The translations under genes were made by a program, and so were the position numbers. This document shows, in pieces, positions 35,627 through 60,026 of a DNA stretch of 64,000 nucleotides. Numbering within the stretch: position 1 is the first letter of the stretch; each line of letters starts with the position of its first letter. Source of the stretch: a virus (Duplodnaviria; Caudoviricetes); IMG/VR virus record IMGVR_UViG_3300044797_000034, positions 247 through 64,246 of that record; one strand, written 5' to 3'. The notes under the pieces were generated by a model. That model searched no databases, was not told the DNA's origin, and saw nothing but the letters and a program-made list of their open reading frames with translations.

Positions 35627-36349
35627 ATGAGTTCCAAAGAAGCATTACATCCGTATCTGCAAACCATAATGGGTAACCTACCGCCGACTATAGGTGAGGG
35701 TGAGGGTTCGCCTGATATGGAGCCACCGCCTGAGCCAGTACCGCCGGGTATGACTACTGAGCAGCCTATGGAGGGTGAGCAGGCTGCGACGACTGATATG
35801 CCACCCCAACAGCCTGGTATGGGTGGGCAGCTTCCGCCAGAGGCTCAGATGTTAGCGGCTATGGGTCAGACACCTGGTATGCCTGATCCAAATGATCCTC
35901 TACGCAATACCAAAGATGAAGGTGTGTATAGCGTAGATGAAATGGGTATTCTTGAGATACTCAGTAAAATATTAACTGGCAAGTATGCCATTTTGATAAT
36001 GTACTATCACTACGGTGCTACGATGCTGTCTTTATCACGAGATAGCATTTACAAACACTTTTTAGAACACGCAAAAGAGGAACGTGAATCTGCTTACATG
36101 GTGGCTAAGCTGATTGTTGCTATGGGAGGGCAAGCTGCGCCTAAGGTTGGTCCAGTACGTCCTGCGGTTGATATGGCTTCTATGTTTTCAGAACTGCTGA
36201 AGGCGGAACAGAAGGTACAAGGCTTTTGGCGAGAATTGAATATGGCAGCTGGACAGAACTTAGGGTTGCAGGCATTCGCGCAGGATCAATGTCAGCTAGA
36301 CTTTCAACACGCAAACGATTTGCGACGGTGGATTAGAAGCGAATGTTAA
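35627..36349 (+). CDS. ferritin-like four-helix-bundle protein with Pro/Met/Gln-rich N-terminus
   Basis: YYHY...HFLEHAKEERESA..VAKLIVAMGG...LKAEQK...DFQHA pattern. Confidence 0.65.
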   Translation: MSSKEALHPYLQTIMGNLPPTIGEGEGSPDMEPPPEPVPPGMTTEQPMEGEQAATTDMPPQQPGMGGQLPPEAQMLAAMGQTPGMPDPNDPLRNTKDEGVYSVDEMGILEILSKILTGKYAILIMYYHYGATMLSLSRDSIYKHFLEHAKEERESAYMVAKLIVAMGGQAAPKVGPVRPAVDMASMFSELLKAEQKVQGFWRELNMAAGQNLGLQAFAQDQCQLDFQHANDLRRWIRSEC

Positions 36350-36990
36350 AGGTAGCTCTATTTGGATTAGATAAGACACCAAAGTTAGACGCAGCACATG
36401 CAGAACTAATTAGGAGTCATGCGTCACCAGAACACGTAGCCGCAATCAATGCTTTGCCTACAGATGCAAAGGGCATTGCTGCTTATCCATTTTCTGATAT
36501 CGAAGGGCATCACACTTTAGTATTCTACAGTCCTACTAAAGGCAATTTAGAAGTTCCTGTACCAAAAGATTTAATGCTTCACATGTTTCCTGAACTTAAA
36601 GATGAAAACACAGTACTATATCAGGAGGGACATGAAGGGCTTAACAGAGCTACTAATTACCTGTCAGAAAAAAATAAAGTTAAAGCAAAAACAGCTTCAG
36701 ATTTCAATTATATGTTTGAAAACATAATCAAGATGGCTGCGGCGGACGCGCGTTGTCAATACGGCATTGGACAAGAGGAGCAGAATCCTAACCCCGTGGA
36801 ACAGCTTACTCATGCTATGCAAAACATGGGTGATGATGCTAAGCCATTCTGGCTGTATGATTCTAAGAAAAATGATCCGAGTCGGTCAGATACGTCTTGG
36901 GGTCCGGCTACACCACTGAACTCTGGCGATGCAGCTGATAGAAATACTCCGTTTTCAGCAGGCTTGAACATTGTATTTGGAGGCGTGTAA
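36343..36990 (+). CDS. hypothetical K-x-A-containing protein
   Basis: KVA, KTAS and KMAA motifs; coupled to its neighbours. Confidence 0.6.
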   Translation: MLKVALFGLDKTPKLDAAHAELIRSHASPEHVAAINALPTDAKGIAAYPFSDIEGHHTLVFYSPTKGNLEVPVPKDLMLHMFPELKDENTVLYQEGHEGLNRATNYLSEKNKVKAKTASDFNYMFENIIKMAAADARCQYGIGQEEQNPNPVEQLTHAMQNMGDDAKPFWLYDSKKNDPSRSDTSWGPATPLNSGDAADRNTPFSAGLNIVFGGV

Positions 36991-37385
36991 TGTCGCAGCA
37001 AAAATTGATAAACGTGTTTGCTCAATTTTATCCAGAAACTTCAAAGTATGGAAAGCTGTTGAAAACTGCTGTAGACTTCGGTGTAGTCGCCAAACACATC
37101 GTAACGCCTCCGGCTAACCTTCTTCAGGCAATGGGCGCTGGCCTTCGTGGTGCCGGTAATGCCGCTCATGCAGTTACATCTTCCATGCCAGATCACGGGC
37201 AACTAGCACGTATGCTGGCGTCTCTACCATCAGCCGTTGCTGGTGGCGCTAAGAGCTTCTATGATGCTGGTGGCGTTGGTGCTGGCGCACTGACAGGACT
37301 AGGTGCTTCAGCACTATACGGTGGCAAAAAACTATACGATGAATACGCATCACCTGCGGGGTACTACAAGCCGGGCGGATACTAA
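36990..37385 (+). CDS. Gly/Ala-rich protein, putative virion component
   Basis: KTA followed by a GxxxG-rich hydrophobic segment; TAATG-coupled on both sides. Confidence 0.6.
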   Translation: MSQQKLINVFAQFYPETSKYGKLLKTAVDFGVVAKHIVTPPANLLQAMGAGLRGAGNAAHAVTSSMPDHGQLARMLASLPSAVAGGAKSFYDAGGVGAGALTGLGASALYGGKKLYDEYASPAGYYKPGGY

Positions 37386-39193
37386 TGGCATCTGTTGGTC
37401 ACCTGCTGGTAAATGAGGTCTTGCCGGATAAGTACAAGATCACTGGACCAGTAACAGCTAAGAGTTTACATGATTCAATGGTCAGCCTGGCCAAGGAAGA
37501 CCCGCAGCTATACGCCCATGTTGTACACAAGCTAAAGCAGCGTGGTGATGAGATAGCAACACTCGAAGGTATATCAGTAGGCCTTGATGACATTAGACCT
37601 GAGTATGCCGCCCGCGATGCAATTCTAAACCCTGTCATCAAAGCGTTCAACGCTACGAAGAATCCAAAAGAGCAAGTGAAGCTTGTTGTAGATGCGCAGA
37701 AAAAATTACTTGATTACACAAAGCAACACAAAGGCTCCATGACCGAAATGGCGGCTACAGGGGCTCGTGGGAGCTTTCCTCAATTGATGAAGATGATAGG
37801 TACGCCACTGGCTTCACAATTACCTGGTAAAGACGTAACGCCATGGCTTGTTACAAAAAGCTATTCAGAGGGTTTGAGTCCCGCTGATTACTGGGTGATG
37901 GCCCCTGAATCCCGTGCAAACAGCATTGCAACTACGGTATCTACTGCTGAGCCGGGTGAAATGGCGAAGGTGTTAGTTGCTAACATGACTAGTCAGGTAA
38001 TCACACAGCATGATTGTGGTACGCACAATGGTGTACGTATGATGATAGATGACCCACACAGTATTGATCGCTATCTTGCTAGTGAACAACATGGGCAGGC
38101 ACACAACACGTTGGTTACGCCTGAACTCATAAATATCCTAAAGGCTAAAAAAGCAGAATGGTTACTTGTGCGAAGTCCTATGACCTGCGTTGATCCTCAC
38201 GGTGTTTGTCAGATGTGTTATGGATTAAATGAAAAGGGTCATTTACACGCAATAGGGATTAACGTAGGTACGCGCAGTGCTCAGGCAATGGCAGAACCAC
38301 TTACACAGATGGCCCTCGGATCTAAGCACGCAATTCTTACTGTTAAAGAAAAAACACTTACACCGACAGGTTTTAAAGGTGTACGTCAGATTTTGGAAAT
38401 ACCGAAGATCTTTCAAGGTGAAGCGGTACTAGCCCCTGCCGCTGACACAGTGTCTGAAATACGTAGTGCACCACAGGGCGGTAGTTACGTAAAACTGAAG
38501 CAACATAAAAAAGAACTCTACGTTAATCCAGCCTTAGATTTACACGTTAAGGTAGGTGATCATGTTGAAGCCGGTGATGCTATGACAAATGGCTTGCCAC
38601 GACCAGATGAAATCACGCAACACAAAGGTATTGGCGCTGGCAGACAATATTTCGTAAACGCGCTGCATGACATGTACAATGGTTCGGGGGTAAACCTTGA
38701 TAAGCGGCATTACGAACTTTTAGCTAAATCAGCTCTTAACCACGTACAGTTCGTAGATTCAGATCCTAACCATCCTGAATTTCTCAGAGGCGATGTTGTA
38801 GCATACAATACTTTTGCGGATGCTTATAGAAAGGATGCCGAAACTGTCTCTACTGACAAAGCTGAGGGCCACCGTCTTGCAGCAGACGTTCATCACCACA
38901 CTGTAGGTACGTTGATTACCCCGTCTCTAGTAAAGGAACTGAAGTCCCACGGCGTAAAGGAAGTTTCAGTTTCTAGAGTCGCTCCCAATGTAACATTTGT
39001 ACACAGATCCTTCGTGATGAATCCTTTACTAGATCACGATTGGTTAGGACGTCTAGCACATAGATTTTTACGAAACTCTATCCAACAGGCTGCACATACA
39101 CGAGAAGAGAGCAATTTACACGGTACACACCCTGTGCCGGCTTATGCTTTTGGTGCGGAAATGCAAGAAGGTTTAGATGGCGGAACCTACTAA
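37385..39193 (+). CDS. RNA polymerase beta-prime C-terminal part
   Basis: TGARG, SYSEGLS, DCGT, RSPMTC...GVCQMCYG, trigger loop AQAMAEPLTQMALGSKH, VEAGD and KRHYE. Confidence 0.93.
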   Translation: MASVGHLLVNEVLPDKYKITGPVTAKSLHDSMVSLAKEDPQLYAHVVHKLKQRGDEIATLEGISVGLDDIRPEYAARDAILNPVIKAFNATKNPKEQVKLVVDAQKKLLDYTKQHKGSMTEMAATGARGSFPQLMKMIGTPLASQLPGKDVTPWLVTKSYSEGLSPADYWVMAPESRANSIATTVSTAEPGEMAKVLVANMTSQVITQHDCGTHNGVRMMIDDPHSIDRYLASEQHGQAHNTLVTPELINILKAKKAEWLLVRSPMTCVDPHGVCQMCYGLNEKGHLHAIGINVGTRSAQAMAEPLTQMALGSKHAILTVKEKTLTPTGFKGVRQILEIPKIFQGEAVLAPAADTVSEIRSAPQGGSYVKLKQHKKELYVNPALDLHVKVGDHVEAGDAMTNGLPRPDEITQHKGIGAGRQYFVNALHDMYNGSGVNLDKRHYELLAKSALNHVQFVDSDPNHPEFLRGDVVAYNTFADAYRKDAETVSTDKAEGHRLAADVHHHTVGTLITPSLVKELKSHGVKEVSVSRVAPNVTFVHRSFVMNPLLDHDWLGRLAHRFLRNSIQQAAHTREESNLHGTHPVPAYAFGAEMQEGLDGGTY

Positions 39194-39716
39194 ATTCCTG
39201 GATAAAGTGGTATTCGCCGCTAAAGAAGCTGCTCATGAGAAGTACGCTGACATACCTGATTTTTTAGGTCATGTGTTTAGCTCACACCAATTACCGCAAA
39301 ATGCACCATTTCATCACCATGTAGGTGAGGGGCTACGACAAATGGCATTTGGCGATCCTTTGACGGTACATAATGAATTTCGGCAAGGTGGGCTTGGACA
39401 CGTTCTTAGTAAGACCTTGAGGCCACAGGGGCTACTTGACGCAGGTATGCGTTACGGTTTGCCTGCGGCTCTTACAGCGAATATGTACCGTAAGTTGTCA
39501 CCAGAACAACGATCTAACTCCGGCGGCGCTATATTAGGTAACGCGGCCGGTGGTTTACTAGGTGGACATGTCGGGGGTAGGTTTGGAATGTTAGGTCAGT
39601 CAGTGCTCGCGCCTCTAGGAGCCCGTGCTGGACAATGGTTAGGTAGTAAATTCGACAAACCAGCGCCCCAACAGCAACAACCGCCCGTACACCAAGTTAA
39701 CGTTCCACCAACTTAA
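39177..39716 (+). CDS. glycine-zipper protein
   Basis: KEAA and KYA near the N-terminus; GAILGNAAGGLLGGHVGG...GARAGQWLG. Confidence 0.6.
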   Translation: MAEPTKFLDKVVFAAKEAAHEKYADIPDFLGHVFSSHQLPQNAPFHHHVGEGLRQMAFGDPLTVHNEFRQGGLGHVLSKTLRPQGLLDAGMRYGLPAALTANMYRKLSPEQRSNSGGAILGNAAGGLLGGHVGGRFGMLGQSVLAPLGARAGQWLGSKFDKPAPQQQQPPVHQVNVPPT

Positions 39717-39773
39717 TTTTGATTTTTCGTCGGTTTCACAATATACTAGGTGAAGTACACTTTAGGAGTTTAC

Positions 39774-41333
39774 ATGTCGACCCCCCACTTGAATACAAAA
39801 GAAGCTGTCCGTGGAGTAAATGCTTACCTCGGAGCGAATTACGGAATTACTTGGGCAAATGAGAAAGTAGCGTCGGATGTCTGTGCTTTTGTAGCTTCTC
39901 AGCTGCAGGGTCCGACAACGCTACCGGAGACCGGGCTCAGCCCCGACTCGGCAGTGAAGATTGCGCAACTGATTGTAAATGCGCACGAATCACTGAAAGC
40001 GAAGGGTTATGCCGGGGAACCGGACTCACTTCGTAAGGTAGCGGCTGGTTGGTCAGTTGCGGATCTTGCGGTTGCCACTACGCGTTTTGATATGGCGGAT
40101 ATGGCGAAGCAGGCAGATGCGCTGATTACTACTGGTGGACAGCACACGAATCGTCCGGGTGAATCACCCGAGGCGCTCGCGAAGCTGGATCAGCACAATC
40201 GTCCGCAGGGTGAGTATCTAGTGGGCATGGGCAACACAGATATGCGAGCCCACGGTTCGGCTGTGATTGGTAAAGAGGAAGTGCATCCGAAGGCGCCGGA
40301 GAATACGTCGCCTACGCCGAATAGTCTGCTTGAGCAGTCAAAGGCTGCTTTTGATATGCAGAGTATGATGCAAGGTGCAAAAAACATGGGAGGCCGTGCT
40401 ATGCAGGGCATGCAGAATGCCGGCAATAACGCTATGTCAGGGTTACAAGGTGCTGGTAAAGCCATAGGGGGAGCGGCGCAAAGCGCCGGTCAAGCGGTGT
40501 CGAATGCACCAGCTGATTTAGCTAGTCTTTGGGCGAGTCTCTCGCCTGAGGCAAGGGGTGCTCTAGTGGGTGGTGGTGCTGGTGCTGCGTTAGGTGGTGC
40601 TGGCGGAGCGATGATGGATGATGAGAGTCCGCTACGCGGTGGTTTGATGGGCGCTGCTGGTGGAGGCCTTCTAGGTGCTGGCGCGGGCGCTATGTATCAG
40701 CACGGTATGCCAAGTGGTAAAGCGTGGCCAGGTTCGTCGGCTGCGGGACATGACGCAGCGAACTCACGTAATATGGTAGGAATGTCGGATCCGGCGCTTG
40801 ATACCGGATATGCGTCGCCCTACGCCCTTGCTCAGATGGGCAAAGGCGCGAGCGACTCGATGGCTCTTGCGTTCAAGAGTGCCCAAGAAATTGGTCTCTC
40901 AAATGATCAAACGGTTGCTCTTCTTTCCAAGATGGCGGCTGGTGGATCACTGACGGATAGCAAAACAAACACTCCCGAGGAAGCGGCTAAGCACGACTCA
41001 GTTGCTAAACTAGATCACAAAAATCGTTCCCCGGAAAAGTATCTTGAAGGTGTGGGAAAGACTGAACTGCCTAATGTAGGCCGCGTTGAACATGCGTCCA
41101 AGCGCCCGGATCAGCCGGGTACTAAGGAGAAGGAGCCGGACACGACTCCTTCACGCGAAGTGAAGTCGGCGGCGGATGAGGCCTTTATGGCGATCTTCAA
41201 GAAGACAGCAGAGGAAGTTGGTCCGTATCTTCCGACAGCCCTATCTGCAGATGATAAAGTTGCGCACGTACGTCGCATGATGGGTCTCAATGAATCAGAA
41301 CGCGGCGAGTATCTAAAGGCGCTAGCTAAGTAA
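39774..41333 (+). CDS. putative inner-head polyprotein with duplicated module and glycine zipper
   Basis: AGGAG RBS; about 12 K-x-A sites; two copies of AKLDxxNR...YLxGxGxT. Confidence 0.65.
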   Translation: MSTPHLNTKEAVRGVNAYLGANYGITWANEKVASDVCAFVASQLQGPTTLPETGLSPDSAVKIAQLIVNAHESLKAKGYAGEPDSLRKVAAGWSVADLAVATTRFDMADMAKQADALITTGGQHTNRPGESPEALAKLDQHNRPQGEYLVGMGNTDMRAHGSAVIGKEEVHPKAPENTSPTPNSLLEQSKAAFDMQSMMQGAKNMGGRAMQGMQNAGNNAMSGLQGAGKAIGGAAQSAGQAVSNAPADLASLWASLSPEARGALVGGGAGAALGGAGGAMMDDESPLRGGLMGAAGGGLLGAGAGAMYQHGMPSGKAWPGSSAAGHDAANSRNMVGMSDPALDTGYASPYALAQMGKGASDSMALAFKSAQEIGLSNDQTVALLSKMAAGGSLTDSKTNTPEEAAKHDSVAKLDHKNRSPEKYLEGVGKTELPNVGRVEHASKRPDQPGTKEKEPDTTPSREVKSAADEAFMAIFKKTAEEVGPYLPTALSADDKVAHVRRMMGLNESERGEYLKALAK

Positions 41334-41428: not shown

Positions 41429-43963
41429 ATGACAATGCAGGGCTTACCAGTTTCGAACTCTCCGCGAACACAAGGTTTTCAAGCTCAAAACCAGGATGCT
41501 CAGGTTGAGGAACTGTTCAATGATGGTTTCACGCAACGTGCTTACGATACATTTGGTAAGGCGTATCCTGATCTTGTAGCTGAGATTGTAACGCTGAAAA
41601 TAATTGACTCAGATCCAGATGATGGTACGGCTTGTGGCGTATTCATACTAGACCACGGACAGGAAATTTTCTATGTCCCTGTAGTCTTTGGTAATAATGA
41701 AATAAAACCGATTGATGTATTTTATTCAAAGCGTTTAGACCGATATCTTCCACTTTCAAGTGAGTGGCTAAACGAGGCTACTAAGGGTGCAATTTCTGAA
41801 TTAGGTCATGCAGTACAGACGCCTAAGACACTGCAGACGGACGTGGACATCCGTAACTTGGTAGTGCCTCCCACGACAGGCCGTTACTCATACGCGTCTG
41901 CTAACGACGAAGATCCGGCTTTTATTCAAATGCTTGAGAAAGCGCCTGCCGCTGTAAAGCAAGGTACGGTTATTTTTTTCGCCAAGCACGCGGCTCTCTT
42001 TAAGAAGGCAGTAGAAGTATTCGGTAAGGAGAGTCTTAGCCGTGCACTGACGATAAAGAAGGCATCAATTGAAGATACTTCTAGCGTAAAGGAAGAAAAG
42101 GCTAAACACGAAAATTACAAAAGTCCTCGCGAAGGAAATGTAATTACTGCTGACAAGGCGACTAAGCCTGCTAAATTAAAAGAGATGTTCGGTGAGGAAG
42201 CCGGTGTAGCGTATTCAACTATACGCACACAAGGTTTTTACGCTAAGGATTACCGTAAAGAAACCAAAGCTGTAATATCTACGCCTGAACGAATGATTAA
42301 TCTTGAGGAACCGTCTACCTCAGGTCTTTACCGTGTTTATATGGCGGATGGTTCCTCTGAGAAGGCACTTGTAATCAAGGACGTAGTTCGTCTAGGTGAT
42401 GGCTACGGTAGTCATAAGTTTGAATTACGTAATCAAACAAATGATCATCCGCATTCGGCGCCTGGTTACAAGGATGACGTATTTCCTCCGTCACGGGCAG
42501 CAGCACATAAGAAATTCTGGTTAGTGATATTTAAAGATGGCCGTTACTGTGAAACAAAATCTTTGCAGGCTGAACCGGTTGTGTCTAGCCACGCGGCATG
42601 TGAGGCTTTTATGAAAGATTCAGAACCTAAGAGTGGCGATGAAGGCTTTTTTGTCTCTACTACTGGTCTTTCACTGCGAGCTACTGACGTAGGATATCTT
42701 CATGAGGTACGTAGCTCCAATGGACGTACATCTATGGTAATGCACGGTACTAAAGTAGTACGCAATGACGATGTGCGCGGTAAAACGATACTTTTTCCTG
42801 CGGATCAAGACGCTGTTTTTCTACCTGGAAATTACCGATTCATCAAAGTATCAAAGCGTTTAGATCCGGCTGATATCTGCATTGATCCTAAGGGGGTCTA
42901 CGCACACGTGGAGGATAAGCTGAAGAAGGAGGGTGCGGTCAAACTTCAGGTTACCTATAAGATGGACGGTTACTATGTTGGTCGTGGTGGACCGTCACTA
43001 TCTAAGGCGGCAGCTCTTAAACAAGTAGCCGAAAAGTATGACCTCACATTAGGTCATTCTGAGCATATTCTCAAACTTGCCGAAGAAGATAAGGTCAAGA
43101 ATGTATGGGCGCTTACCGCTAAAACCATCGCTAAATTGGCTGCTGATAGCGCCCCTCCCAAGAAGGACAAAGCTCCTGCCCAACCTGCCCAACAAGACCC
43201 TGCGGCTCAAGGTGGAATGGATCCTTCGATGGGCGGCGATCCAGCGGCTATGGGTATGGGAATGCCTGCTGGTCCTCCGCAGCCTAGCTCTATAGAACTA
43301 GCGGCGGCTGAAATGCTACAGCAACTACAATCGCAGCAAGATTCTCTTGCTCAGCAAATGCAATTACTTCAGCAAGTAGCTGCACGCGCTCAACAAATAG
43401 AAGCTTCAGGTGCGGGCGTAATGGCTGCTCCGTTAGCGGCGCAAATGATTGCCCCTCCGCCTCAGGCTGGTGCTCCTGCTCCTGCAGCTCCACCTGACCC
43501 TGCCGCACAACCACAGGATCCATCACAAGGGCAAATAGACCCTAATACGGGCATGCCTATGCAACAGCAACAACCTATGGGACGTATGAATCCTGGATCG
43601 AAAGACTTAACGCCTGATAATATGGCGCAGTCTATAAATCCACAGTTCATGCAAGACGCCGCTGCCCTATCCGATGCTCAAGTATTTGATGCGGCTTCAG
43701 TAGCATCTCTCGCTCAAAACAGCGATACAATGGAGCTAGCTCAAGCCTATACCCCTAAAATTGAATCAGCCCTAGACTCCATTTGTCGTCTATTGACGCT
43801 CTTCAACATCAAAGAAGATGTCATCAAAGAACAGTTTGGCCAAGAATCCTACAGTATGACCGTTCAAAAACTACGCGATCTTGTTAAAGGAATGGGGGAT
43901 ACCCTTCTTAAGGTCGAACAAATGGGACAGCACCGGGCACCCGAGTATGCTGATGCACGGTAA
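41429..43963 (+). CDS. large putative head or inner-core protein
   Basis: 844 aa; K-x-A sites; Pro/Gln/Met-rich low-complexity linker; TATACTT upstream. Confidence 0.6.
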   Translation: MTMQGLPVSNSPRTQGFQAQNQDAQVEELFNDGFTQRAYDTFGKAYPDLVAEIVTLKIIDSDPDDGTACGVFILDHGQEIFYVPVVFGNNEIKPIDVFYSKRLDRYLPLSSEWLNEATKGAISELGHAVQTPKTLQTDVDIRNLVVPPTTGRYSYASANDEDPAFIQMLEKAPAAVKQGTVIFFAKHAALFKKAVEVFGKESLSRALTIKKASIEDTSSVKEEKAKHENYKSPREGNVITADKATKPAKLKEMFGEEAGVAYSTIRTQGFYAKDYRKETKAVISTPERMINLEEPSTSGLYRVYMADGSSEKALVIKDVVRLGDGYGSHKFELRNQTNDHPHSAPGYKDDVFPPSRAAAHKKFWLVIFKDGRYCETKSLQAEPVVSSHAACEAFMKDSEPKSGDEGFFVSTTGLSLRATDVGYLHEVRSSNGRTSMVMHGTKVVRNDDVRGKTILFPADQDAVFLPGNYRFIKVSKRLDPADICIDPKGVYAHVEDKLKKEGAVKLQVTYKMDGYYVGRGGPSLSKAAALKQVAEKYDLTLGHSEHILKLAEEDKVKNVWALTAKTIAKLAADSAPPKKDKAPAQPAQQDPAAQGGMDPSMGGDPAAMGMGMPAGPPQPSSIELAAAEMLQQLQSQQDSLAQQMQLLQQVAARAQQIEASGAGVMAAPLAAQMIAPPPQAGAPAPAAPPDPAAQPQDPSQGQIDPNTGMPMQQQQPMGRMNPGSKDLTPDNMAQSINPQFMQDAAALSDAQVFDAASVASLAQNSDTMELAQAYTPKIESALDSICRLLTLFNIKEDVIKEQFGQESYSMTVQKLRDLVKGMGDTLLKVEQMGQHRAPEYADAR

Positions 43964-43966
43964 TAC

Positions 43967-44665
43967 ATGCTTAGAGAAGCGCTTGACCATAACGCTAATA
44001 GGATAAAATCACTAGTTGAATCTGGTGCGTCCTTTTCTAGCGAACAGCCGATAGAAACGTCCTTTTATCAACTACTCACGTCTGGTAAGTGTGATATAGA
44101 ACAGGTGATTGACGCTTACGTATTGTACTTAGCTACTGAGGAACGGCATATTATGGACGCTTTGATAATCGCTAAGGCTAGCGATATCAATATAGCAGAG
44201 GCGTTAAGTATGTCACAGCCAATGATATCGGCGTATAGATATCTTTTCTGTGACCGAACAGTATTTAGACATGACCTAGAAATACGTCAGTATGTTCGTA
44301 CTTTAAAGGTCTTGCCGCAACATAAGCTATTTTATGACGAAGCCTTTCTCAAGGGTTACAAATACTTCGCAGACAGATTTCGTATAGGTGAAAAGCCTAC
44401 ATTATCTCCCAAACAGGTAATCGAGCAAATAATGCTTGACGCTTCGGATAGGGCTATTGCTCATAGAGGAGAGGTTATAACGTCTGAGATTGCTAAGGAG
44501 GCCTTACGTTGGGCCAGCGCTGCGGTTTCGTCAGCGCAAGCACTAATACGTGTAGGCGCGGAGTCTAAAAACATCAGCGATGACTTACGACTTGCTTTAC
44601 GGATAGAGGATCATACAACTACTGTAGAAGACCTAGGAATTGAACCTGGTCAAATGGTACACTAA
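43967..44665 (+). CDS. hypothetical protein
   Basis: 232-aa helical protein; possible HTH (IAEALSMSQPMISAY). Confidence 0.6.
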   Translation: MLREALDHNANRIKSLVESGASFSSEQPIETSFYQLLTSGKCDIEQVIDAYVLYLATEERHIMDALIIAKASDINIAEALSMSQPMISAYRYLFCDRTVFRHDLEIRQYVRTLKVLPQHKLFYDEAFLKGYKYFADRFRIGEKPTLSPKQVIEQIMLDASDRAIAHRGEVITSEIAKEALRWASAAVSSAQALIRVGAESKNISDDLRLALRIEDHTTTVEDLGIEPGQMVH

Positions 44666-44699
44666 TAACAGCTTATACTTACCTAGCGAGGCACGGCTA

Positions 44700-46466: not shown

Positions 46467-46467
46467 C

Positions 46468-50302: not shown

Positions 50303-50474
50303 TACATCTACGGAGCTTCGCAAGTTGGCTGCCATACTTCGTGAAGAAGATTCGAAGTTAGATAAACAGACTGCGCATTCAACGCTTGTCAAAGTTGGTC
50401 ACATACTTTGTGCAGGTAAGGGTCTCTCTATATTGGGACAAAAAGTACGAGGTTGGTATGAGCCTTCTATCTAA
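50289..50474 (+). CDS. small head-module protein
   Basis: ELRKLAA, similar to DLRKLAS in the previous ORF. Confidence 0.5.
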   Translation: MAVDNTSTELRKLAAILREEDSKLDKQTAHSTLVKVGHILCAGKGLSILGQKVRGWYEPSI

Positions 50475-50902: not shown

Positions 50903-51424
50903 ATGACTATTCTTAGTAGCAACTTTAACATCGTAAACAAGGACGGCCCCGGATTCGCGCTGGGCGGAATTTGGGACTCACTTGAGCCTGCGGAAGTCGC
51001 GACGGCTATCGCGGCTGGTTCGGGTGCGGGCGTACCTGATTCAACTGGTACGATTACCCTTGGCGCCATTCAAGCAGGTCATATCTGCTCGATGGATACC
51101 AACGGTCACCTTGTGCTTGGATCGAGCCCGACGCTGTCGGCTTCGCTCTCACAAATGTTCTTCGTGGTGTTCGAAGGGGACAATGACTTTTCGGGTGCTG
51201 CTGCTGGACAGGTCTCGTGTGTACACGGCGGTGTGCGTATTGAAACTACACTGTTCTCGACAGGCCAGGTTTGGACACCCGGAGCGCCGGTCATCTGCGT
51301 AAGCGGATTGATTCAGCCTGAGGCGACGGCTAACGACCAAGTACAAGTAATTGGCTGGGTAGGCCCGAACGGCTTGAACTCAAGCGGTATTCTGGACGTA
51401 TATCTTTGTCAGGGACGCGGCTAA
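50903..51424 (+). CDS. putative capsid decoration/cement protein
   Basis: 173 aa, Gly-rich beta composition; immediately upstream of the capsid gene; GGAG RBS. Confidence 0.6.
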   Translation: MTILSSNFNIVNKDGPGFALGGIWDSLEPAEVATAIAAGSGAGVPDSTGTITLGAIQAGHICSMDTNGHLVLGSSPTLSASLSQMFFVVFEGDNDFSGAAAGQVSCVHGGVRIETTLFSTGQVWTPGAPVICVSGLIQPEATANDQVQVIGWVGPNGLNSSGILDVYLCQGRG

Positions 51425-51473: not shown

Positions 51474-52394
51474 ATGAGTTACAAAACAGAAACCACGAAT
51501 GTAAGCGCTCAGTATCTGAATGCAGCGTTTGTCCGTAAAATTGCGGATGAAGGAAAGATCAAAGAAGCTGCGGTAGAAGGTACTGCCTTCGTTCGCGAGA
51601 AGGTCCGTCAGGAATCCTTCGCTCGTGAAATCATTGTTCCTGTGGGGTTACAGGATGATGAGATTGATCGTGACGTGAGTACTGATCAGCCAAAAAAGAT
51701 AGTGGAAAAAGAACCGGCATCGTTTGCTACCTACGTACCTTTTACAGGCCAGGGTCCTCGCGTATGGTTCCGTGGGCCACGCTATCAGATTTACTTCTAT
51801 AAGGTTGAAAGCCAGCGCTTTACGAAGTCGAAGTTCGAGCTTATGACATATCAGAACGATATTCGTAAGATTCTCTCGGATAACAGCGTTAAAGATATGG
51901 CGGACGTAGAGGATATACGATTCCTCACGACCATTAGCGAAATCATAGCACTGAACCCTGCGCAGGTAACTCCTGCTCCTGCGTTCAACTCAGTTGCTTG
52001 GTCAAAGGCACAGCAATCAATGGCGAATCGTCGTCGTCCGGTTGGCAAGTTCCTTATGACTAAGGAACTTTACTACGATGCGATTAACCTTCCGGCTACT
52101 GCGGTTGGTAATGAGATTGCGGAAGGCCACTACCGTGAGGGCATTGAGAAAGAGGAACGTCTCTTTGGTATGCCTGTAGTGACTACTGTGAAGTCAGATG
52201 TATTTCAGACAGTACTTGGCAGTTCACGTACAGCATTCGTGTTCTCACCTGAGAACTTCCTTGGTAACTTCTTCCTGCTTCAGGACGCAACGCTATTCAT
52301 AAAGCAGGAAGCAGATATTATAACCTTCTATACTTACGAGTCAATTGGTCTTGGTATAGGTAATCGTCTCAGCTTCCAGCAAATCAACTTCTAA
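51474..52394 (+). CDS. major capsid protein
   Basis: 306 aa; GGAG RBS; follows protease, scaffold and decoration genes and precedes a terminator; FVREKVRQESFAREII and LFGMPVVTT. Confidence 0.75.
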   Translation: MSYKTETTNVSAQYLNAAFVRKIADEGKIKEAAVEGTAFVREKVRQESFAREIIVPVGLQDDEIDRDVSTDQPKKIVEKEPASFATYVPFTGQGPRVWFRGPRYQIYFYKVESQRFTKSKFELMTYQNDIRKILSDNSVKDMADVEDIRFLTTISEIIALNPAQVTPAPAFNSVAWSKAQQSMANRRRPVGKFLMTKELYYDAINLPATAVGNEIAEGHYREGIEKEERLFGMPVVTTVKSDVFQTVLGSSRTAFVFSPENFLGNFFLLQDATLFIKQEADIITFYTYESIGLGIGNRLSFQQINF

Positions 52395-52424: not shown

Positions 52425-52453
52425 TTGACAAGAAGAAACCCATGTTGTACACT
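52425..52453 (+). promoter_or_regulatory. sigma70-type promoter
   Basis: TTGACA-17 nt-TACACT. Confidence 0.7.
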
Positions 52454-52469
52454 ACAACATGGGTTTTTT
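52436..52469 (+). terminator. intrinsic terminator after the capsid gene
   Basis: AAACCCATGTTGTA-CAC-TACAACATGGGTTT followed by a T run. Confidence 0.8.
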
Positions 52470-52487
52470 CATTGGTGTTGGTTTACA

Positions 52488-54101
52488 GTGATTCCTACAA
52501 AAGAACAAATTATCTCTGCTATAGATGAAGTAGAAACCCTTAAACAATTTGGCTACCATCCTTCTTCACTGAAGCAGTGTTCCGAAAAATCAGTTATATT
52601 AAGGTGTCCTACTTGTTCAAAGCTATTTGAACGTATGTATAAAACTGTCAAGGCAAGTGTCTATTGTTTTAGCTGCTCTAGACACACAAAACCTATTTCA
52701 GATAGTGTACTCTCTGCTGTTAATACCCCAGAGACATTGAGTGCCTTTGGTTATTCGCCAAATACCTTACTAAGGACTTCACATAGTTTTGTAGTGGTTA
52801 ACTGTAGTTTTTGTGGTAATTTATTTAGACGTAGATTTTATCAGTTGATGGCTAGTACTTATTGTAAGAAGTGTGGCCAGCCTGGCAATCGGGTGTTAGT
52901 TTCGGAAGACATAACAACTGCAATCAATATCATTGCCACTATTGACAGACTCAACTATCATCCAAATACGCTGTCTCCTAATTCCATAAAACACGTAGTT
53001 ATCAACTGTATTGATTGTGGAGAGCTTGTGACTAGACAGCGTAATCTATTAATAACTACATTACGCTGTAAATCTTGTGGCCATAAAAACTGTGATACAG
53101 TGGCTATAAATACCAAACGGCTAAAGACCATAAAAGAAAGACACGGAGGAATGAATAATCCTGTAATTTTAGCTAAAAAAGCAGAGACTTTGTATAAACA
53201 TTACGGTGAAGGAGGGCCTCCTCAAAACCACAAATATAGCGCTACAGCCAACAAAATAGGTGAGATGATTGAGTCCTGGGGACTTGAAGTAATATATGAA
53301 AAAGCCTTAAAAACAGGCCAGTACCTTGACATAACAGTTCCATCTAAAAACTTCTCTCTTGAATATTGTGGTTTATATTGGCACAATGAAATGAGTAAAT
53401 CTCCAAGATTACGTAACTATCACATCAGTAAAATGAAGGCTGCTAATGCAGAGGGCCTCCGGCTAATGACTCTCTTCGAAGATGAATGGAAGGACAATCC
53501 TGACGGAGTAATCAATTTACTAAAGTCCATATTGCTTCCTCCTGAGACACGGCTATTTGCTCGTAAGTGTGAAGTTCGTATGTTAGACAAGAAGATTGCC
53601 AAGGCATTCTTAAATAAAAATCACTATCAAGGCTCTGCTAACAGCATATACATGGCTGCTGGGCTATTTCAGGGAGAAGAGTTATTAGGTGTGATGAGCA
53701 TGGCAAAACATCACAGGCAAAACCATGAGCATTGTTTGATTCTTTCTCGTATGGCTTTTAAAATGGGGGTTCAAATAGTCGGTGGTGCTGGTAGATTACT
53801 CAAATTTTTGCTGGCTCAACCTGAAGCAGCTACTTTCACAGAGCTGATATCCTGGTCAGACAATCGTTATAGTGAAGGGCATGTCTACGAAGCTATAGGA
53901 ATGACGTTAACTAAAGAACTAGGCCCAGACTATTCATACGTAATGGGCGGTAAGGATCGCCGGGAAAGCAAACAGGCACATCGTAAGGTATGCACTGGCT
54001 GCCCTAAGGAGATAACGGAACGAGACTGGGAGTTACAGCATGGTAACCCTCGTATATGGGATTGTGGAAAGAAAGTCTGGACTATGCCGTTACTACGTTA
54101 A
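52488..54101 (+). CDS. Hef-like putative homing endonuclease with three N-terminal Zn-ribbon repeats
   Basis: Three repeats of T(L/I)...Y.P..L...S...V...CxxC; LDI...EYCGLYWH; FEDEW; ARKC...FLxxNHYQG...IWDCG; GTG start inferred. Confidence 0.7.
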   Translation: MIPTKEQIISAIDEVETLKQFGYHPSSLKQCSEKSVILRCPTCSKLFERMYKTVKASVYCFSCSRHTKPISDSVLSAVNTPETLSAFGYSPNTLLRTSHSFVVVNCSFCGNLFRRRFYQLMASTYCKKCGQPGNRVLVSEDITTAINIIATIDRLNYHPNTLSPNSIKHVVINCIDCGELVTRQRNLLITTLRCKSCGHKNCDTVAINTKRLKTIKERHGGMNNPVILAKKAETLYKHYGEGGPPQNHKYSATANKIGEMIESWGLEVIYEKALKTGQYLDITVPSKNFSLEYCGLYWHNEMSKSPRLRNYHISKMKAANAEGLRLMTLFEDEWKDNPDGVINLLKSILLPPETRLFARKCEVRMLDKKIAKAFLNKNHYQGSANSIYMAAGLFQGEELLGVMSMAKHHRQNHEHCLILSRMAFKMGVQIVGGAGRLLKFLLAQPEAATFTELISWSDNRYSEGHVYEAIGMTLTKELGPDYSYVMGGKDRRESKQAHRKVCTGCPKEITERDWELQHGNPRIWDCGKKVWTMPLLR

Positions 54102-54110: not shown

Positions 54111-54440
54111 ATGAGTCTCACGTATCTTCAAAAGATAGCAGCGGCTGGCGCCTTCGCAGCATCTAATCAATTTCTAGGTACTGGCAGTATGGGTACACCT
54201 GGGGCTGGTGCTGCTGGCGCTAAACTGCCTCAACTGAACAGCAAGATAACCACTCCTGGTCTAGGTGGAGCAGGTAGTGGAATGGGCACTGGCGGGCCTA
54301 TTAGCGCCCCTGCCTTAGCCGGTGGGACAGGTGCCACATTACAACAAGAAACCATTACACATGGTGACTCACAGAACAAAATTAATACTGCTCCTATAAC
54401 ACCGGGAATGATTCACCCTACACATCCAAAGTTCTCATAA
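54111..54440 (+). CDS. Gly-rich small protein
   Basis: LQKIA at the N-terminus; TAAACTT 5 nt upstream of the ATG. Confidence 0.55.
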   Translation: MSLTYLQKIAAAGAFAASNQFLGTGSMGTPGAGAAGAKLPQLNSKITTPGLGGAGSGMGTGGPISAPALAGGTGATLQQETITHGDSQNKINTAPITPGMIHPTHPKFS

Positions 54441-55000
54441 TGCCCAATTATCCTGTTGATACCCAAAACGCTGCTACAAATAACTACGGTACCGATCGAG
54501 AAATTGACGAACTGTGGCCAGGGTTGAGCCATTGGTATCTATCACAATCAACTGGTGATGGTTATCCGGGCCGTCGAAATTCTAGAGCTAGACCTGCTGG
54601 TGATGAGGCAGCCAGTTACATGAGGGATCATGACTTCTTTCAGGATTACAATGGCTGGGAACCTACCAATGCATTGGACGCTAACGATAAGCTGTATAAC
54701 ACAAGTGATCAGCAACCCGTTAACCAAATGGAGATAACAGGATCACTACAAGACTATTCCGGTCTTTTTGATACGGATCATATTGACCCCCGTATGCCTG
54801 AATCACAACAAAACCTTTTGAACCAACCATTTCGTACAGGCATGGGAGTAGAACAAGACCAAGCCATATCAAAAATGTTCAGTGATTTAAAAGCTATGGG
54901 TGGTGATAATCAAACAATGAATACTCAGGGTGAAGGTACTATAGGGGACAGTTTTGGTAAATCGGGAGCGCTTGCAGCAAGGCGTCTATATGGCATATGA
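54440..55000 (+). CDS. acidic hypothetical protein
   Basis: 186 aa; TAATG-coupled. Confidence 0.55.
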   Translation: MPNYPVDTQNAATNNYGTDREIDELWPGLSHWYLSQSTGDGYPGRRNSRARPAGDEAASYMRDHDFFQDYNGWEPTNALDANDKLYNTSDQQPVNQMEITGSLQDYSGLFDTDHIDPRMPESQQNLLNQPFRTGMGVEQDQAISKMFSDLKAMGGDNQTMNTQGEGTIGDSFGKSGALAARRLYGI

Positions 55001-56671: not shown

Positions 56672-59530
56672 ATGGCACGTCCTATTGTAATCGTTTATCA
56701 GGAAGTGACTAACACTAGCGTTACGCCGATCACACCTGATCTGCAGACGATAATTGTTGGTCCGGCTTACGTTATTAACGATTACCCTGACGACGCTGCG
56801 AACATACTTCTGCCTACAGGATATGGTACAGCGGGAGGCGCGGCACAAACAGCTGGAAGTGCGACGGTATATCAACCTCCGGTACAGAACGTTATTCAGC
56901 AAACAGTAAATGCCTTTCCGAATAACGCACCTGGTGCTATTGTAGATCAATCAAGTGTGGCGCTATGGCTACAAACGCCGAGCGTAATCCTTGGTTCGAC
57001 CACCGCCAACTCAGGCATCGGTGGAACTATCTATGCCCCTAGCCTAGGGACATCAGTAACGACAGTTAACTCGTCTAGCAGCCTGAACCTGATTCAATTT
57101 ACCGGTGGTATTTCACTTGCCGCTACGTTTGGAGTGCAAGCAGGAGACCTGATCTACCTTACGGACTCGGCTGGTAATACACTCAAGCGCACAGTTCTTT
57201 CTGTTGGCGAAGGCGGGTCTGCGCTGTACGATCTTCGCGTTACGCAAAATCTTCCTTCTTCGGGTTGGGTATTTGACGCCAACGGTTCAGCGCGTATTGA
57301 ACGCGTACTAGCAACACAACTGGCGCCTAACCCCAATGGCACGATCCTTCAATTCCCGAATCCTGCAGCGAATCCCATGAACATCATGGGCTTTATTCAG
57401 GTATCTGTATCGATTGCAGGTACACCTACGCTACTTACGGTTTCATATGCCGGCCTGTACTTAGTTTACACTGCACTTCGACAAGATCTTCAGACAATTA
57501 ATAGCTGTAACTTTACACAAATAACGACACTAGTAGGAAAAATTGATGCGCGCAATCCTCTAGCAGTTGGGCTCTCGGTAGCGTTGCAAAACTCAGGTAG
57601 CGCACCGATGCTATTTTACGGTGTAGCATCTGATGACCTCGCAGGTTACGCACTTTTCCGCGATGCCGTAAATGCTCGTAAGGATCTTTATGCTGTTGTA
57701 CCGTTGATTGCGGACACGAGTACCCTGCTTGGTTTTAGCATCGATAACACGAACCTAGCTGATCCTACACAAGCAGCTGCTACCGGTGTGGTACAGAAAT
57801 TTCGTATGGTTCTCGGTTCAGGTACGTTACCTACAGATCAAATTACGGCTGCGGGATCTACCGATGGTGTTCCCCATCAATCAGGAGCTAGTTCTGGTAA
57901 GTATCAGACCATAAATATACTTGAGCCTGGTGGAAGTGATATCTCAACGTCTCTACCTGGTGACTTAGTAACAATCGGATTGGTTCCAACGACAGGTCCT
58001 GACATAGGTACATGGACCACACGTCGTGGCGTACATCAGATTTCGCACGTCAATACTACGACGCAGTTTGAGATTCTTCCTAGTAACCCTGCTTCGTGGA
58101 ATAACACTGCTGGTGATACGACTGGTATTGGTGGCGGTGAACCTGGCGCTGAAATCATGATCACCGACCCAACGGGATACACGGTGAAGTTCAAAAAAAT
58201 AGCAACCCTATCTATCACGTATGGCTCATCAACTCTACTGATATCACATCGGGTACCGGTCACATCGGGCGGCCCGTATCAAGTAGCATTCGTGGGCGGG
58301 GCCGGTACGCTTAACGTAACTCTTTCAGGTTTCAATATTACTGTTAACTTTGTAACAGCTTCATCCACGGTCAGCCAGGTTATAGCCGCGCTACAGGCAA
58401 ATGCTGCTATTAACGCAGTTATAACTACCACCTTAACTGGTCCGGGTACTGACCACGTAACAGCATCAAGTCTTACGCCTCTAGCAATTGATGATCTTAC
58501 CGGTTGCGGAGTCTCAGTAGTCATTAATGACAACTACTACGATATCTTGGAAGATGATACTGCGACCTTCCTTACGGATGGTGTACTTCCGGGTGATATA
58601 GTTCAAATCCCTGCTAACCCGAATAACTACTCTAACTCAGCTTTTACTGGACTGATTACGTCGTATGTTGTTACGAATGTTATTAGTGAAAACCGTGTAG
58701 AACTAACTCCTGCTACGGATGATCTTCCCTCAGTTGCTACTGAATTCCCACACGGTTACAGTCGCTCTGGGTCAGGACTTGTAGACGTTACTACGCCTAC
58801 AGCTATTCGCTATCAGATAGTTCGAGTACTTAATGCGACAGCTCAAGTGACAGCTCTTCAAGAATATGCACAAAGCTTTATGAATGCGCGTGCTACGCTT
58901 GTGTGGCCGGATCTTTGTCTAGTCTCAGGGCTAGTCGATGGTAGTCTGCCGCGTACATCACCTGCAGTTCCTGCGGTAGCTGGTAACCAACCTGGTTACT
59001 ACGCCGCTTGCGCTGTAGGCGGAGCGATGGCTGGTCTACCCGCGCAGCAAGGTCTTACAAACATCGCGTTTGCAGGCCTGACGTCAGTTACCCACTCTAC
59101 GGACTACTTCACGGATCCGCAAATCTCGCAGATCTCAGACGGTGGTTGGTTTGTGCTTCAGCAAGACAATCCGATCGCAGCTCCGTATTGTGTACATCAG
59201 CTTACGACTAACCCGTCTGCGGTTGAGACTGGTGAAATATCAGTTGTTAAGGACATTGACTTCGTGTCTCTGTACTTAGTCAACGTACTCGACCCGTTCA
59301 TCGGACAGTACAACGTAACGGAAGATACCCTTACAGAAATAAATCAGGCTCTTGTTCAAGCGATGGAACAATTGGTAATTCGTAAGGTCGCTCGTATCGG
59401 GGCACCGCTTATTTCAGGAAGTGTTACTTCTCTAGCTGTGTCTCCGGTGAGTTCAGATCAGGTAGATATTTACCTAGATCTAGATGTTCCGCGGCCCCTT
59501 AACCGCATCGGCCTGCACCTGGTGGTGTAG
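56672..59530 (+). CDS. tail sheath protein
   Basis: MARPIVIVYQE start; C-terminal HQLTT...EISVVKDIDFV...FIGQYN...PLNRIGLHLVV; beta-rich insertions. Confidence 0.85.
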   Translation: MARPIVIVYQEVTNTSVTPITPDLQTIIVGPAYVINDYPDDAANILLPTGYGTAGGAAQTAGSATVYQPPVQNVIQQTVNAFPNNAPGAIVDQSSVALWLQTPSVILGSTTANSGIGGTIYAPSLGTSVTTVNSSSSLNLIQFTGGISLAATFGVQAGDLIYLTDSAGNTLKRTVLSVGEGGSALYDLRVTQNLPSSGWVFDANGSARIERVLATQLAPNPNGTILQFPNPAANPMNIMGFIQVSVSIAGTPTLLTVSYAGLYLVYTALRQDLQTINSCNFTQITTLVGKIDARNPLAVGLSVALQNSGSAPMLFYGVASDDLAGYALFRDAVNARKDLYAVVPLIADTSTLLGFSIDNTNLADPTQAAATGVVQKFRMVLGSGTLPTDQITAAGSTDGVPHQSGASSGKYQTINILEPGGSDISTSLPGDLVTIGLVPTTGPDIGTWTTRRGVHQISHVNTTTQFEILPSNPASWNNTAGDTTGIGGGEPGAEIMITDPTGYTVKFKKIATLSITYGSSTLLISHRVPVTSGGPYQVAFVGGAGTLNVTLSGFNITVNFVTASSTVSQVIAALQANAAINAVITTTLTGPGTDHVTASSLTPLAIDDLTGCGVSVVINDNYYDILEDDTATFLTDGVLPGDIVQIPANPNNYSNSAFTGLITSYVVTNVISENRVELTPATDDLPSVATEFPHGYSRSGSGLVDVTTPTAIRYQIVRVLNATAQVTALQEYAQSFMNARATLVWPDLCLVSGLVDGSLPRTSPAVPAVAGNQPGYYAACAVGGAMAGLPAQQGLTNIAFAGLTSVTHSTDYFTDPQISQISDGGWFVLQQDNPIAAPYCVHQLTTNPSAVETGEISVVKDIDFVSLYLVNVLDPFIGQYNVTEDTLTEINQALVQAMEQLVIRKVARIGAPLISGSVTSLAVSPVSSDQVDIYLDLDVPRPLNRIGLHLVV

Positions 59531-59531
59531 T

Positions 59532-60026
59532 ATGCGACTGACTGAGAAGTTAGCTAAATACCACGCCGGGTTTCCTTATATGTCTGATAATGAGCGTCAG
59601 ACAAAATGGGCGTCTTTAGAAGAAGATGAAAAAGTAGCGTTCACTGCTATACTGAATGCTGCCAAGCCTGTCCTAGGACGTATAGGTGGTGCAGTGTCTA
59701 ATGTGGCTGGTAAAGCTAGCAAGGCTGTCGGCATGGGCATGACAGGCTTGGGCCTTTATGGGGCTGCGCAGGCTGCTGGGCAGGCGGCGAACGTTAACCC
59801 TAAGATGGCTGGCTTAATGGCCCTAGGTAAGGGAATGAAGATCCCAGCGTTAGGCCCAGGAATGCGCAATGCCGTTGATTTAGGCGGGTACGGATTACTT
59901 GCGGCGGGTCCGGCGGCGGAGATGGTTGCCCCTAATTTTGCGGAAAAACATCACAAGGCTCTGGCCCTTGCTGATTTACTTGGGTTAGGCGTAGTTTCGC
60001 GTGACCATTGGATGCCAGGACACTAA
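59532..60026 (+). CDS. Gly/Ala-rich amphipathic K-x-A protein
   Basis: ATG 1 nt after the sheath stop; KLA, KWA, KVA and KMA motifs. Confidence 0.6.
   Translation: MRLTEKLAKYHAGFPYMSDNERQTKWASLEEDEKVAFTAILNAAKPVLGRIGGAVSNVAGKASKAVGMGMTGLGLYGAAQAAGQAANVNPKMAGLMALGKGMKIPALGPGMRNAVDLGGYGLLAAGPAAEMVAPNFAEKHHKALALADLLGLGVVSRDHWMPGH

Follow-up and report, generated by a model that had tools for sequence, protein, structure and literature searches.

The Lys-x-Ala (K-x-A) motif is found in the proteins of the head module of a large, uncultivated phage, within a 64,000-nucleotide stretch of viral DNA (IMG/VR record IMGVR_UViG_3300044797_000034, class Caudoviricetes), where it probably forms the core that the prohead protease of this phage, encoded at 47328..49310, recognizes at its cleavage sites. 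This stretch, hereafter the window, is the 64,246-base virus record minus 246 bases, and all coordinates refer to it. An earlier note on the same DNA had proposed both an excess of K-x-A in plus-strand late proteins and its reading as a cleavage code.

The head module lies on the plus strand after the RNA polymerase genes, and is followed by the genes for the sheath (56672..59530) and the baseplate hub. Its gene order is 44640..45572, 46459..47328, the protease gene, a scaffold-like gene at 49360..49977, a series of small open reading frames (ORFs) and the capsid gene at 51474..52394. This order matches that in Salmonella phage Arash, Vibrio phage D69 and related IMG/VR loci. Searches of PHROGs and Pfam yielded no family for most head-module proteins, and a megablast search with positions 44000-56000 against 50,697 phage records yielded no close DNA relative.

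Over-representation and specificity of K-x-A

The motif was counted in 58 long non-nested ORFs, each of which was compared with 2000 composition-preserving shuffles. Seven ORFs have z-scores above 3, namely 6627..7649 (11 sites versus 2.3 expected, z 6.2), 44640..45572 (13 versus 4.3, z 4.8), 50078..50302 (3 versus 0.46, z 4.0), 49360..49977 (8 versus 2.6, z 3.9), the protease gene (12 versus 4.6, z 3.7), 39750..41333 (12 versus 5.3, z 3.3) and 50386..50835 (5 versus 1.5, z 3.2). Three others, at 39177, 46245 and 46459, have z-scores of 2.2-2.5, and none of the 16 minus-strand ORFs exceeds 2. The start positions of the ORFs at 39750, 44640, 46459 and 50386 are uncertain. Pooled over eight enriched proteins, 71 sites are present where 24.8 are expected (2.9-fold, z 10.8).

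A blind scan of 400 residue pairs at spacings of 1-4 in 17 plus-strand late proteins ranks K-x-A first (97 versus 43.6, z 9.0), which makes it the strongest gapped pair among those with more than a handful of counts. The next pairs, K-x-x-x-E (z 5.9) and E-K (z 4.6), are parts of a longer motif around K-x-A. In the remaining 41 proteins, K-x-A occurs at chance (79 versus 79.1) and is outside the top six pairs. The sites also tend to lie near N-termini: 13 of 19 late proteins have one at residues 10-36, versus 3.8 expected, and the other proteins have such a site in 7 of 39 cases, versus 5.3 expected. The earlier note further proposed that the motif addresses proteins to the prohead; this placement would be the one hint of such a role.

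Shuffled controls thus bear out the excess that was claimed in late proteins. The individual counts were exact for 6627..7649 (11 of 25 Lys residues) and 49360..49977 (8 of 13), and we also recovered the 12 sites in 39750..41333, the 7 in the first 131 residues of 46459..47328, the two in the capsid N-terminus and the 12 in the protease. Other statements require adjustment. Among the further ORFs listed as containing the motif, those at 36343, 36990, 41429, 45574, 50289, 54111 and 59484/59532 are not individually enriched. Replication enzymes, described as sparse in K-x-A, belong to the proteins in which it occurs at the frequency that composition predicts. Ala or Ser does often follow the motif, but Glu is as common, with Ser, Ala and Glu each at position +3 of 16 of the 97 sites.

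Near variants of the motif are not enriched in the eight proteins. R-x-A, K-x-S, K-x-G and K-x-V occur at 0.69, 0.60, 0.74 and 0.36 times expectation, respectively, KA, K-x-x-A and A-x-K occur at 1.00, 0.91 and 0.99 times, and E-x-A shows no enrichment either. The cleavage motifs of phages T4 ([LI]-x-E; 22 versus 24.6, 0.90-fold) and phiKZ ([SAG]-x-E; 58 versus 50.8, 1.14-fold, z 1.1) are likewise not enriched, and were rejected as the code of this phage. Codons for Lys and Ala at K-x-A sites are mixed, as they are elsewhere. This places the signal at the protein level, and a DNA-level origin was ruled out.

The extended motifs [LIVMF]-x-K-x-A and K-x-A-[SAGE] exceed expectation 5.3-fold and 4.6-fold. 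A profile of the flanks of 2645 sites in 279 distinct substrate orthologues (see below) confines the information to positions -2 to +4, where the Lys is position 0 and the Ala is position +2. The preferred residues are Phe, Leu, Met and Ile at -2 (Phe and Leu 2.6-fold), Glu, Val and Thr at -1, Thr, Val, Ile and Leu at +1, Ser (3.1-fold), Ala (1.9-fold) and Glu (1.7-fold) at +3, and Glu and Asp at +4. Pro is depleted at +1, +3 and +4. The full recognition form would be [F/L/M/I]-[E/V/T]-K-[T/V/I/L]-A-[S/A/E]-[E/D].

Because the enriched proteins are helical and rich in Ala (up to 20%), one might suppose that K-x-A simply reflects the structure of Ala-rich proteins that form helices or coiled coils, and that it has no role in recognition. 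We regard this as very improbable. The shuffles control for composition, and an effect of helix or charge would not separate Lys from Arg or spacing i+2 from i+3, as the absence of enrichment in R-x-A, E-x-A, KA, A-x-K and K-x-x-A requires. Moreover, the motif is also found in disordered linkers, and the flank preferences at +1, +3 and +4 are weak or absent in control proteins.

The protease and its relatives

The candidate prohead serine protease (47328..49310, plus strand) has 660 residues, with a catalytic domain at residues ~57-261 and then a long helical C-terminal part. It matches phrog_18299, a head maturation protease, weakly (E 2e-9). Its AlphaFold model has a mean predicted local distance difference test (pLDDT) score of 80. 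When the model was compared with 48,161 chains by using VIA-align, T4 gp21 (5jbl_A) ranked first, with Z 9.6, a root-mean-square deviation of 2.8, 127/165 residues aligned to model residues 57-246 and 13% identity over the aligned core. The varicella-zoster virus protease (1vzv_A) ranked second (Z 8.3, 116 aligned), and the human cytomegalovirus protease (8j3s_A) scored Z 6.1; the herpesvirus proteases are 8-12% identical to the candidate. Matches in BFVD include phage G gp19, RSL1, PaBG and many prohead protease entries, and those named "COG3740 phage head maturation protease" or XkdF have E about 1e-5. An hhalign comparison with HK97 gp4 gives no significant match (E 0.25), but aligns S187 with the gp4 Ser of M-S-V-G-F. 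A sequence-profile search of the PDB with the protease alignment gave chance helical matches and no protease.

Residues H136 and S187, the latter within S-M-G-C, are invariant in all 32 aligned homologues. On the strength of the modeled fold, with its matches to T4 gp21 and the herpesvirus enzymes, and of the conserved His and Ser, the protein is assigned as an assemblin-fold prohead serine protease of a family named in no curated library. A cluster comprising C197, C200, C211 and H213 (47916..47966) is also invariant in this alignment and resembles a small zinc-binding insert in the protease domain; T4 gp21 is much shorter.

Of the 12 K-x-A sites in the protease, none falls between residues 48 and 256. 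A candidate self-release site, K257-V-A259 (48096..48104, plus strand), immediately follows the catalytic domain, and its Lys and Ala are invariant in 32/32 homologues. In a set of 71 homologues, K-x-A is present at the K257 column in 69, at an N-terminal column in 57, at the residue-282 column in 38 and at the residue-429 column in 27, and the poorly conserved region 580-640 still has ~0.5 sites per 20 residues. The pooled ratios to expectation in these homologues are 4.9 for the N-terminal flank, 1.16 for the catalytic core and 2.4 for the C-terminal part. Model segments with pLDDT below 50, at residues 32-36, 41-46 and 255-266, coincide with the sites at 33, 45 and 257, and another, at 435-454, follows the site at 429. 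An enzyme that releases its own catalytic domain would be expected to show such a layout.

An invariant Lys could also be one that K-x-A marks for covalent modification or cross-linking in the head. We give this explanation hardly any credence: the PHROGs and Pfam library scans revealed no modifying enzyme in the head module, and the pattern of sites around the protease domain and at propeptide positions fits proteolysis.

Relatives of the protease are numerous. An exhaustive HMMER scan detected 2837 at E<=1e-3, and the 150 best of these contain 1271 K-x-A sites versus 592 expected, with z above 2 in 68%. Some homologues of ~1000-1400 residues (P0004, P0008, P0010 and P0015) carry inteins, as indicated by Hint, Intein_splicing and LAGLIDADG matches. 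The inteins are inserted near the catalytic Ser motif, and the Hint domain of P0004 begins at residue 183. In addition, the whole protease model aligns over ~450-540 columns with two BFVD entries (A0A6J5N5R9 and A0A6J5RFH1), which are phage proteins of ~620-680 residues that bear the name "Ferritin/DPS domain containing". The C-terminal part may thus be ferritin-like in some relatives, or the helical tail may merely look like such a domain.

Phages that carry a member of the family range from the Arash-like ones, which have ~190 kb genomes and package a multisubunit RNA polymerase, to phage G and the cluster C mycobacteriophages. By using tblastn, the protease was found in Vibrio phages D69, D181 and D148, Salmonella phage Arash, phage G (gp19) and 209 Mycobacterium phage records. 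Where it was inspected in cultured phages, the gene is labeled "structural" or "hypothetical" (Arash gp222, D69 0270 and I3 gp103). K-x-A is the top pair in Arash (44 versus 19.4, z 6.3), with L-x-K next (z 5.5), and in D69 (56 versus 29.1, z 5.8). It is the second pair in mycobacteriophage I3 (32 versus 19.2, z 3.3; gp103 alone, 18 versus 8.2) and the fifth in phage G (28 versus 16.8, z 3.0; gp19 alone, 8 versus 2.5). Judged by these counts, K-x-A accompanies the protease family into four very different phage groups.

A recent phage G paper names gp19 a head maturation protease and, in the portion available, gives no motif (PMC12484599). In the open-access literature, which leaves subscription journals uncovered, no cleavage motif was found for Arash, phage G, RSL1 or Bxz1, and a search with the same coverage found no paper that pairs K-X-A with a prohead.

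Candidate substrates and site-depleted proteins

To follow the motif in relatives, IMG/VR was scanned with an alignment-based query. Of 470 candidate stretches, 431 were confirmed, and we retained 80 loci, several of which belong to complete ~190 kb genomes. A scan with a single-protein query, unlike the alignment-based scan, found no loci. Orthologues were assigned by using phmmer. K-x-A exceeds expectation 4.3-fold in orthologues of 50386 (27 loci), 3.9-fold in those of 44640 (53 loci; 525 versus 134), 3.7-fold in those of the scaffold-like 49360 (49 loci; 512 versus 137), 2.4-fold in those of the protease (77 loci), 2.3-fold in those of 39750 (33 loci), 2.0-fold in those of 41429 (60 loci) and 1.9-fold in those of 46459 (12 loci). 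When loci with at least four such orthologues were scanned blindly one at a time, K-x-A ranked first among gap-2 pairs in 48 of the 50 loci and second in the other two. Conservation in homologues, which the earlier note had suggested as a check, is thus observed: sites are kept in position across orthologues, with local turnover.

The scaffold-like protein (49360..49977, plus strand) has 205 residues, is rich in Ala and carries its 8 sites along its length. Cleavage at these sites is predicted to yield pieces of 5-45 residues. The corresponding protein of D69 has ten sites, all of which read K-x-A-S/A.

The helical head-module protein (44640..45572, plus strand) has 310 residues when read from a TTG start codon (an alternative ATG is at 44700), and contains 13 sites. 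The consensus of 32 orthologues, which are 17-37% identical, includes seven K-x-A blocks, one of which is a K-x-A-S/A/E island in an otherwise unalignable linker. A similar situation is found in the 340-residue protein at 6627..7649 (plus strand), whose gene is upstream of the terminase gene and apart from the head module, and which contains 11 sites. Its orthologues in 5 complete ~190 kb genomes are 38-67% identical and have 10-13 sites each (z 5.2-7.2), with seven positions kept and several others shifted by a few residues. Such a combination of conserved islands and local shifts is what selection on a short linear motif typically produces.

Four small ORFs between the scaffold-like and capsid genes (49977..50078, 50078..50302, 50289..50474 and 50458..50835, plus strand) each contain sites of the form [L]-x-K-x-A; the counts given above for 50386..50835 concern a longer reading of the last of them. 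Two further proteins combine sites with a site-free piece. In the 527-residue protein at 39750..41333 (plus strand), 12 sites flank a site-free piece of 167 residues with a Gly-zipper core, and in the 289-residue protein at 46459..47328 (plus strand; 7 versus 3.5, z 2.2), sites at residues 22-133 precede a site-free C-terminal part of 156 residues with a Gly-zipper. The zipper assignments come from weak matches to the YMGG-type glycine-zipper, below the Pfam cut-off, at residues 266-314 and 143-185, respectively. The trimmed products might be membrane-active proteins that are packaged in the head. The 179-residue protein at 39177..39716 (plus strand) is a borderline case, with sites at residues 16 and 22 (3 versus 0.84, p 0.04) and a ratio of 1.13 in orthologues. 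A larger structural protein of the head module, 844 residues long (41429..43963, plus strand), is the counterpart of Arash gp218; it was considered as the portal, but a BLASTP comparison with the I3 portal gave no match.

The major capsid protein (51474..52394, plus strand; 306 residues) is 41% identical to Arash gp226 (E 3e-75). It has two N-terminal sites on the same strand, K22-I-A (51537..51545) and K30-E-A (51561..51569), and K-[E/Q/L]-A is present at the residue-30 column in 45/45 distinct capsid N-termini. Among 48 distinct capsid proteins, the first 45 residues contain 48 sites versus 14.3 expected, and the remainder is depleted (36 versus 64.1). Depletion is also seen in orthologues of the RNA polymerase beta' subunit (0.69-fold) and of the sheath (0.62-fold). 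RNA polymerase was among the most abundant proteins, by spectral count, in the Arash virion, according to the proteome study of that phage (PMC10585845). Depletion in proteins that need to survive is what a cleavage signal predicts.

The earlier note had also called the motif sparse in the sheath, tube and spike. The low number of sites there is mostly explained by a scarcity of Lys residues, and the sheath orthologues are mildly depleted as given above. Eight plus-strand proteins are Lys-poor (4228..5136, 5525..6580, 50903..51424, 54440..55000, 56672..59530, 60051..60830, 61576..63084 and 63139..63999). Several are tail parts, and Arg is not raised in compensation. The sheath has 10 Lys in 952 residues, and the 50903 protein has 1 in 173. 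This poverty in Lys may represent avoidance of the protease signal or may have some other cause.

The N-terminal placement of sites in 13 of 19 late proteins, the conserved motif islands, and the many sites in helices, which are better suited to binding than to proteolysis, would also fit an uncut docking motif that binds the capsid interior, the portal or the protease and serves encapsidation only. However, docking leaves several observations unexplained: the disordered linker that follows the catalytic domain contains an invariant site, and further sites bracket this domain. Nor does it account for the 8-13 copies spread through single proteins or for the depletion in the mature capsid protein and in the packaged RNA polymerase beta' subunit. 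In addition, the analogue of the K-x-A pattern in T4 is a proven cleavage motif. Docking is therefore an unlikely role for the motif.

The rest of the window includes genes of several other functions. Replication genes, which encode ribonucleotide reductase, family A DNA polymerase, primase, SNF2 helicase and ParB, are on the minus strand. The large terminase gene is on the plus strand (8805..10421), as are the two RNA polymerase genes, a beta/beta'-N fusion gene of 1465 codons that includes Rpb2 domains 2, 3 and 6 and Rpb1 domains 1 and 2 (31203..35600), and a separate beta'-C gene with Rpb1 domain 5 (37385..39193). A protein with a ferritin-like domain (35627..36349) is encoded between them. 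Homing endonuclease genes of the HNH or endonuclease VII type are found among the structural genes, at 52425..54101, 8332..8817 and 60855..61601. The first of these is directly 3' of the capsid gene, and an HNH gene likewise follows the capsid gene of mycobacteriophage I3. Directly 3' of this endonuclease gene is a 109-residue, Gly/Ala-rich low-complexity ORF (54111..54440) that has an orthologue in 1 of 80 loci.

A proposed cleavage code

The blind scan was applied to the T4 proteins gp67, gp68, gp21 and gp22 as a positive control. The top two pairs are I-x-E (z 4.0) and L-x-E (z 3.9), gp22 alone has 16 [LI]-x-E sites versus 5.8 expected, and K-x-A is enriched in none of seven T4 head proteins. 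The method thus recovers an experimentally established cleavage motif, and the signal in the window is stronger.

Based on these observations, we infer that K-x-A sites are cut and that the 47328..49310 protein cuts them. The protease would be synthesized as a 660-residue precursor with a His136/Ser187 pair. In the prohead, it would cut itself near residues 33-47 and at K257-V-A259, which would release the catalytic domain. The capsid protein would lose about 32 N-terminal residues, and N-terminal propeptides of 12-35 residues would be taken off several internal proteins. Scaffold-like proteins (49360, 44640, 6627 and the small ORFs at 49977-50835) would be chopped to short peptides able to exit the shell before DNA is packaged.

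The bond that would be cut is a separate matter. We moderately favor a cut after Ala, which would put Lys at P3, Ala at P1 and a small Ser or Ala at P1', with information at P5-P2'. It is favored because the resulting "fixed, free, fixed" layout is that of L/I-x-E and A-x-E, and because Ser would be at P1'. The SPN3US protease gp245 is also reported to prefer Ser at P1' (PMC10052503).

Alternately, the same protease might cut the same sites after Lys, that is, between [L/I/F/M]-x-K and x-A, with Lys at P1 and a hydrophobic residue at P3. The pair [LIVMF]-x-K is enriched 1.5-fold in the window (z 3.9), and L-x-K ranks high in Arash, as noted. The HK97 capsid record reads K|S at 103/104, the presumed cut site after Lys103, although no x-A follows there. 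A hydrophobic P3 would also resemble the L/I-x-E sites of T4 (PMC5694885). Nevertheless, the motif requires Ala at +2 as strictly as it does Lys, with fewer K-x-S, K-x-G and K-x-V than expected, which would be unusual for P2'. Information would extend from P3 to P5', mostly on the prime side, and P1' would hold beta-branched Thr, Val or Ile. A cut after Lys is thus a lesser but serious possibility.

Several points weigh against cleavage at K-x-A by this protease, or against the strength of its statistics. The shuffles preserve composition, but leave local composition and secondary structure uncontrolled. The 17 late proteins were picked after the earlier note had made its claim, although the per-locus scans are independent of that choice. 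Orthologues are related by descent, so that pooled z-scores overstate their independence, and the ORFs of the loci were called mechanically. The 41429..43963 protein is itself not enriched (8 versus 7.4), and the excess appears in its 54 distinct orthologues (529 versus 259, 2.0-fold). In the model of the 44640..45572 protein (pLDDT 85), 12 of 13 sites are within helices and not linkers. The C-terminal residues of this protein are K-K-A-A-G, at which cleavage would be pointless. T4 gp22 is likewise considered a helical protein, and it is cut many times. About 5 of the 12 sites in the protease are likewise within predicted helices. The protease has no Pfam family, with 0 of 32 homologues matching any protease family at E<=0.1, and a Foldseek search of the PDB with the whole 660-residue model gave nothing at E<=0.001. 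The HK97 junction speaks for a cut after Lys and not after Ala. Finally, the available part of the Arash proteome paper mentions neither a protease nor cleavage (PMC10585845).

The expectation that sites would lie in linkers is thus only partly borne out: it holds for the protease and fails for 44640..45572, where the helices are confidently predicted. The interpretation as a cleavage code, by contrast, is backed by the specificity of the motif, its conservation, the fold of the protease, the sites in disordered linkers on both sides of the catalytic domain, the depletion in the mature capsid part, RNA polymerase beta' and the sheath, the occurrence of the motif along with the protease family in four phage groups, and the T4 control, and we consider it probable as a prediction.

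T4 gp21 is among the nearest known counterparts. It has the same fold, and its motif also consists of two fixed residues separated by one free residue. In the T4 system, too, scaffold and core proteins contain many sites, N-terminal propeptides are short and the capsid N-terminus is trimmed, and the statistical footprint is the same. The motif differs, with Leu or Ile and Glu in T4 and Lys and Ala here, as does the enzyme, which has 212 residues in T4 versus 660 here, where there are a Cys/His cluster inside the domain and a helical tail of 400 residues.

As in phiKZ (gp175), 201phi2-1 and SPN3US (gp245), one protease would process many head proteins in a large phage with a virion RNA polymerase. 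Self-cleavage after the catalytic domain and extra motif copies in propeptides, which two papers report for those phages (PMC5694885 and PMC10052503), would be further likenesses; the former reports self-release of the catalytic domain for SPN3US gp245 and phiKZ. However, the motifs of these phages are S/A/G-x-E or A-x-E and rest on mass spectrometry, whereas [SAG]-x-E is unenriched here and the K-x-A code is predicted from sequence. In SPN3US, RNA polymerase and other proteins are substrates case by case, whereas beta' orthologues here are depleted of sites. The head is also not phiKZ-like, in that the capsid protein is small, with 306 residues.

Herpesvirus assemblin cuts (V/L/I)-x-A, followed by Ser, at its release and maturation sites. 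The candidate protease has the same fold and a site directly after the protease domain, and would have Ala before and Ser or Ala after the proposed cut. In both systems, a long scaffold-like part follows the protease domain in the same polypeptide, and an adjoining gene encodes a separate scaffold. The phage motif would instead have Lys at the third residue before the cut, where assemblin sites have Val, Leu or Ile, and its hydrophobic preference is two residues further upstream. There are also many more sites per protein here, and the catalytic residues assigned are His and Ser.

Resemblance to HK97 gp4 consists of the BFVD fold matches to COG3740 and XkdF entries and of the weak hhalign alignment that puts Ser187 on the gp4 Ser. 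In contrast to gp4, none of the 32 family members matches a Pfam protease family, and the HK97 capsid junction is K|S without x-A.

To our knowledge, few phages (T4, phiKZ, 201phi2-1 and SPN3US) are known to have a prohead protease that processes many head proteins at a short motif, and all these enzymes cut after Glu. K-x-A is a statistically strong candidate for a second kind of code, in an unannotated family outside Pfam. We give roughly even credence to the broader proposition that K-x-A followed by Ser or Ala is an undescribed prohead-protease specificity across a very large, mostly uncultivated family, whose Ala before and Ser after the cut would match herpesvirus assemblin and not T4 or phiKZ. 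This part of the specificity would then either be ancestral to the protease fold that phages and herpesviruses share or have arisen twice. The code should be readily testable, because Arash, D69, phage G and cluster C mycobacteriophages can all be cultured, and spectra of the Arash virion have already been recorded. If true, it would predict which scaffold and core proteins are degraded in these ~190 kb phages, which proteins carry propeptides and where the mature ends lie, and it would tie phage protease specificity to that of herpesviruses. A code this clean would then allow the internal head proteome, with its mature ends, to be read from sequence even in uncultivated phages.

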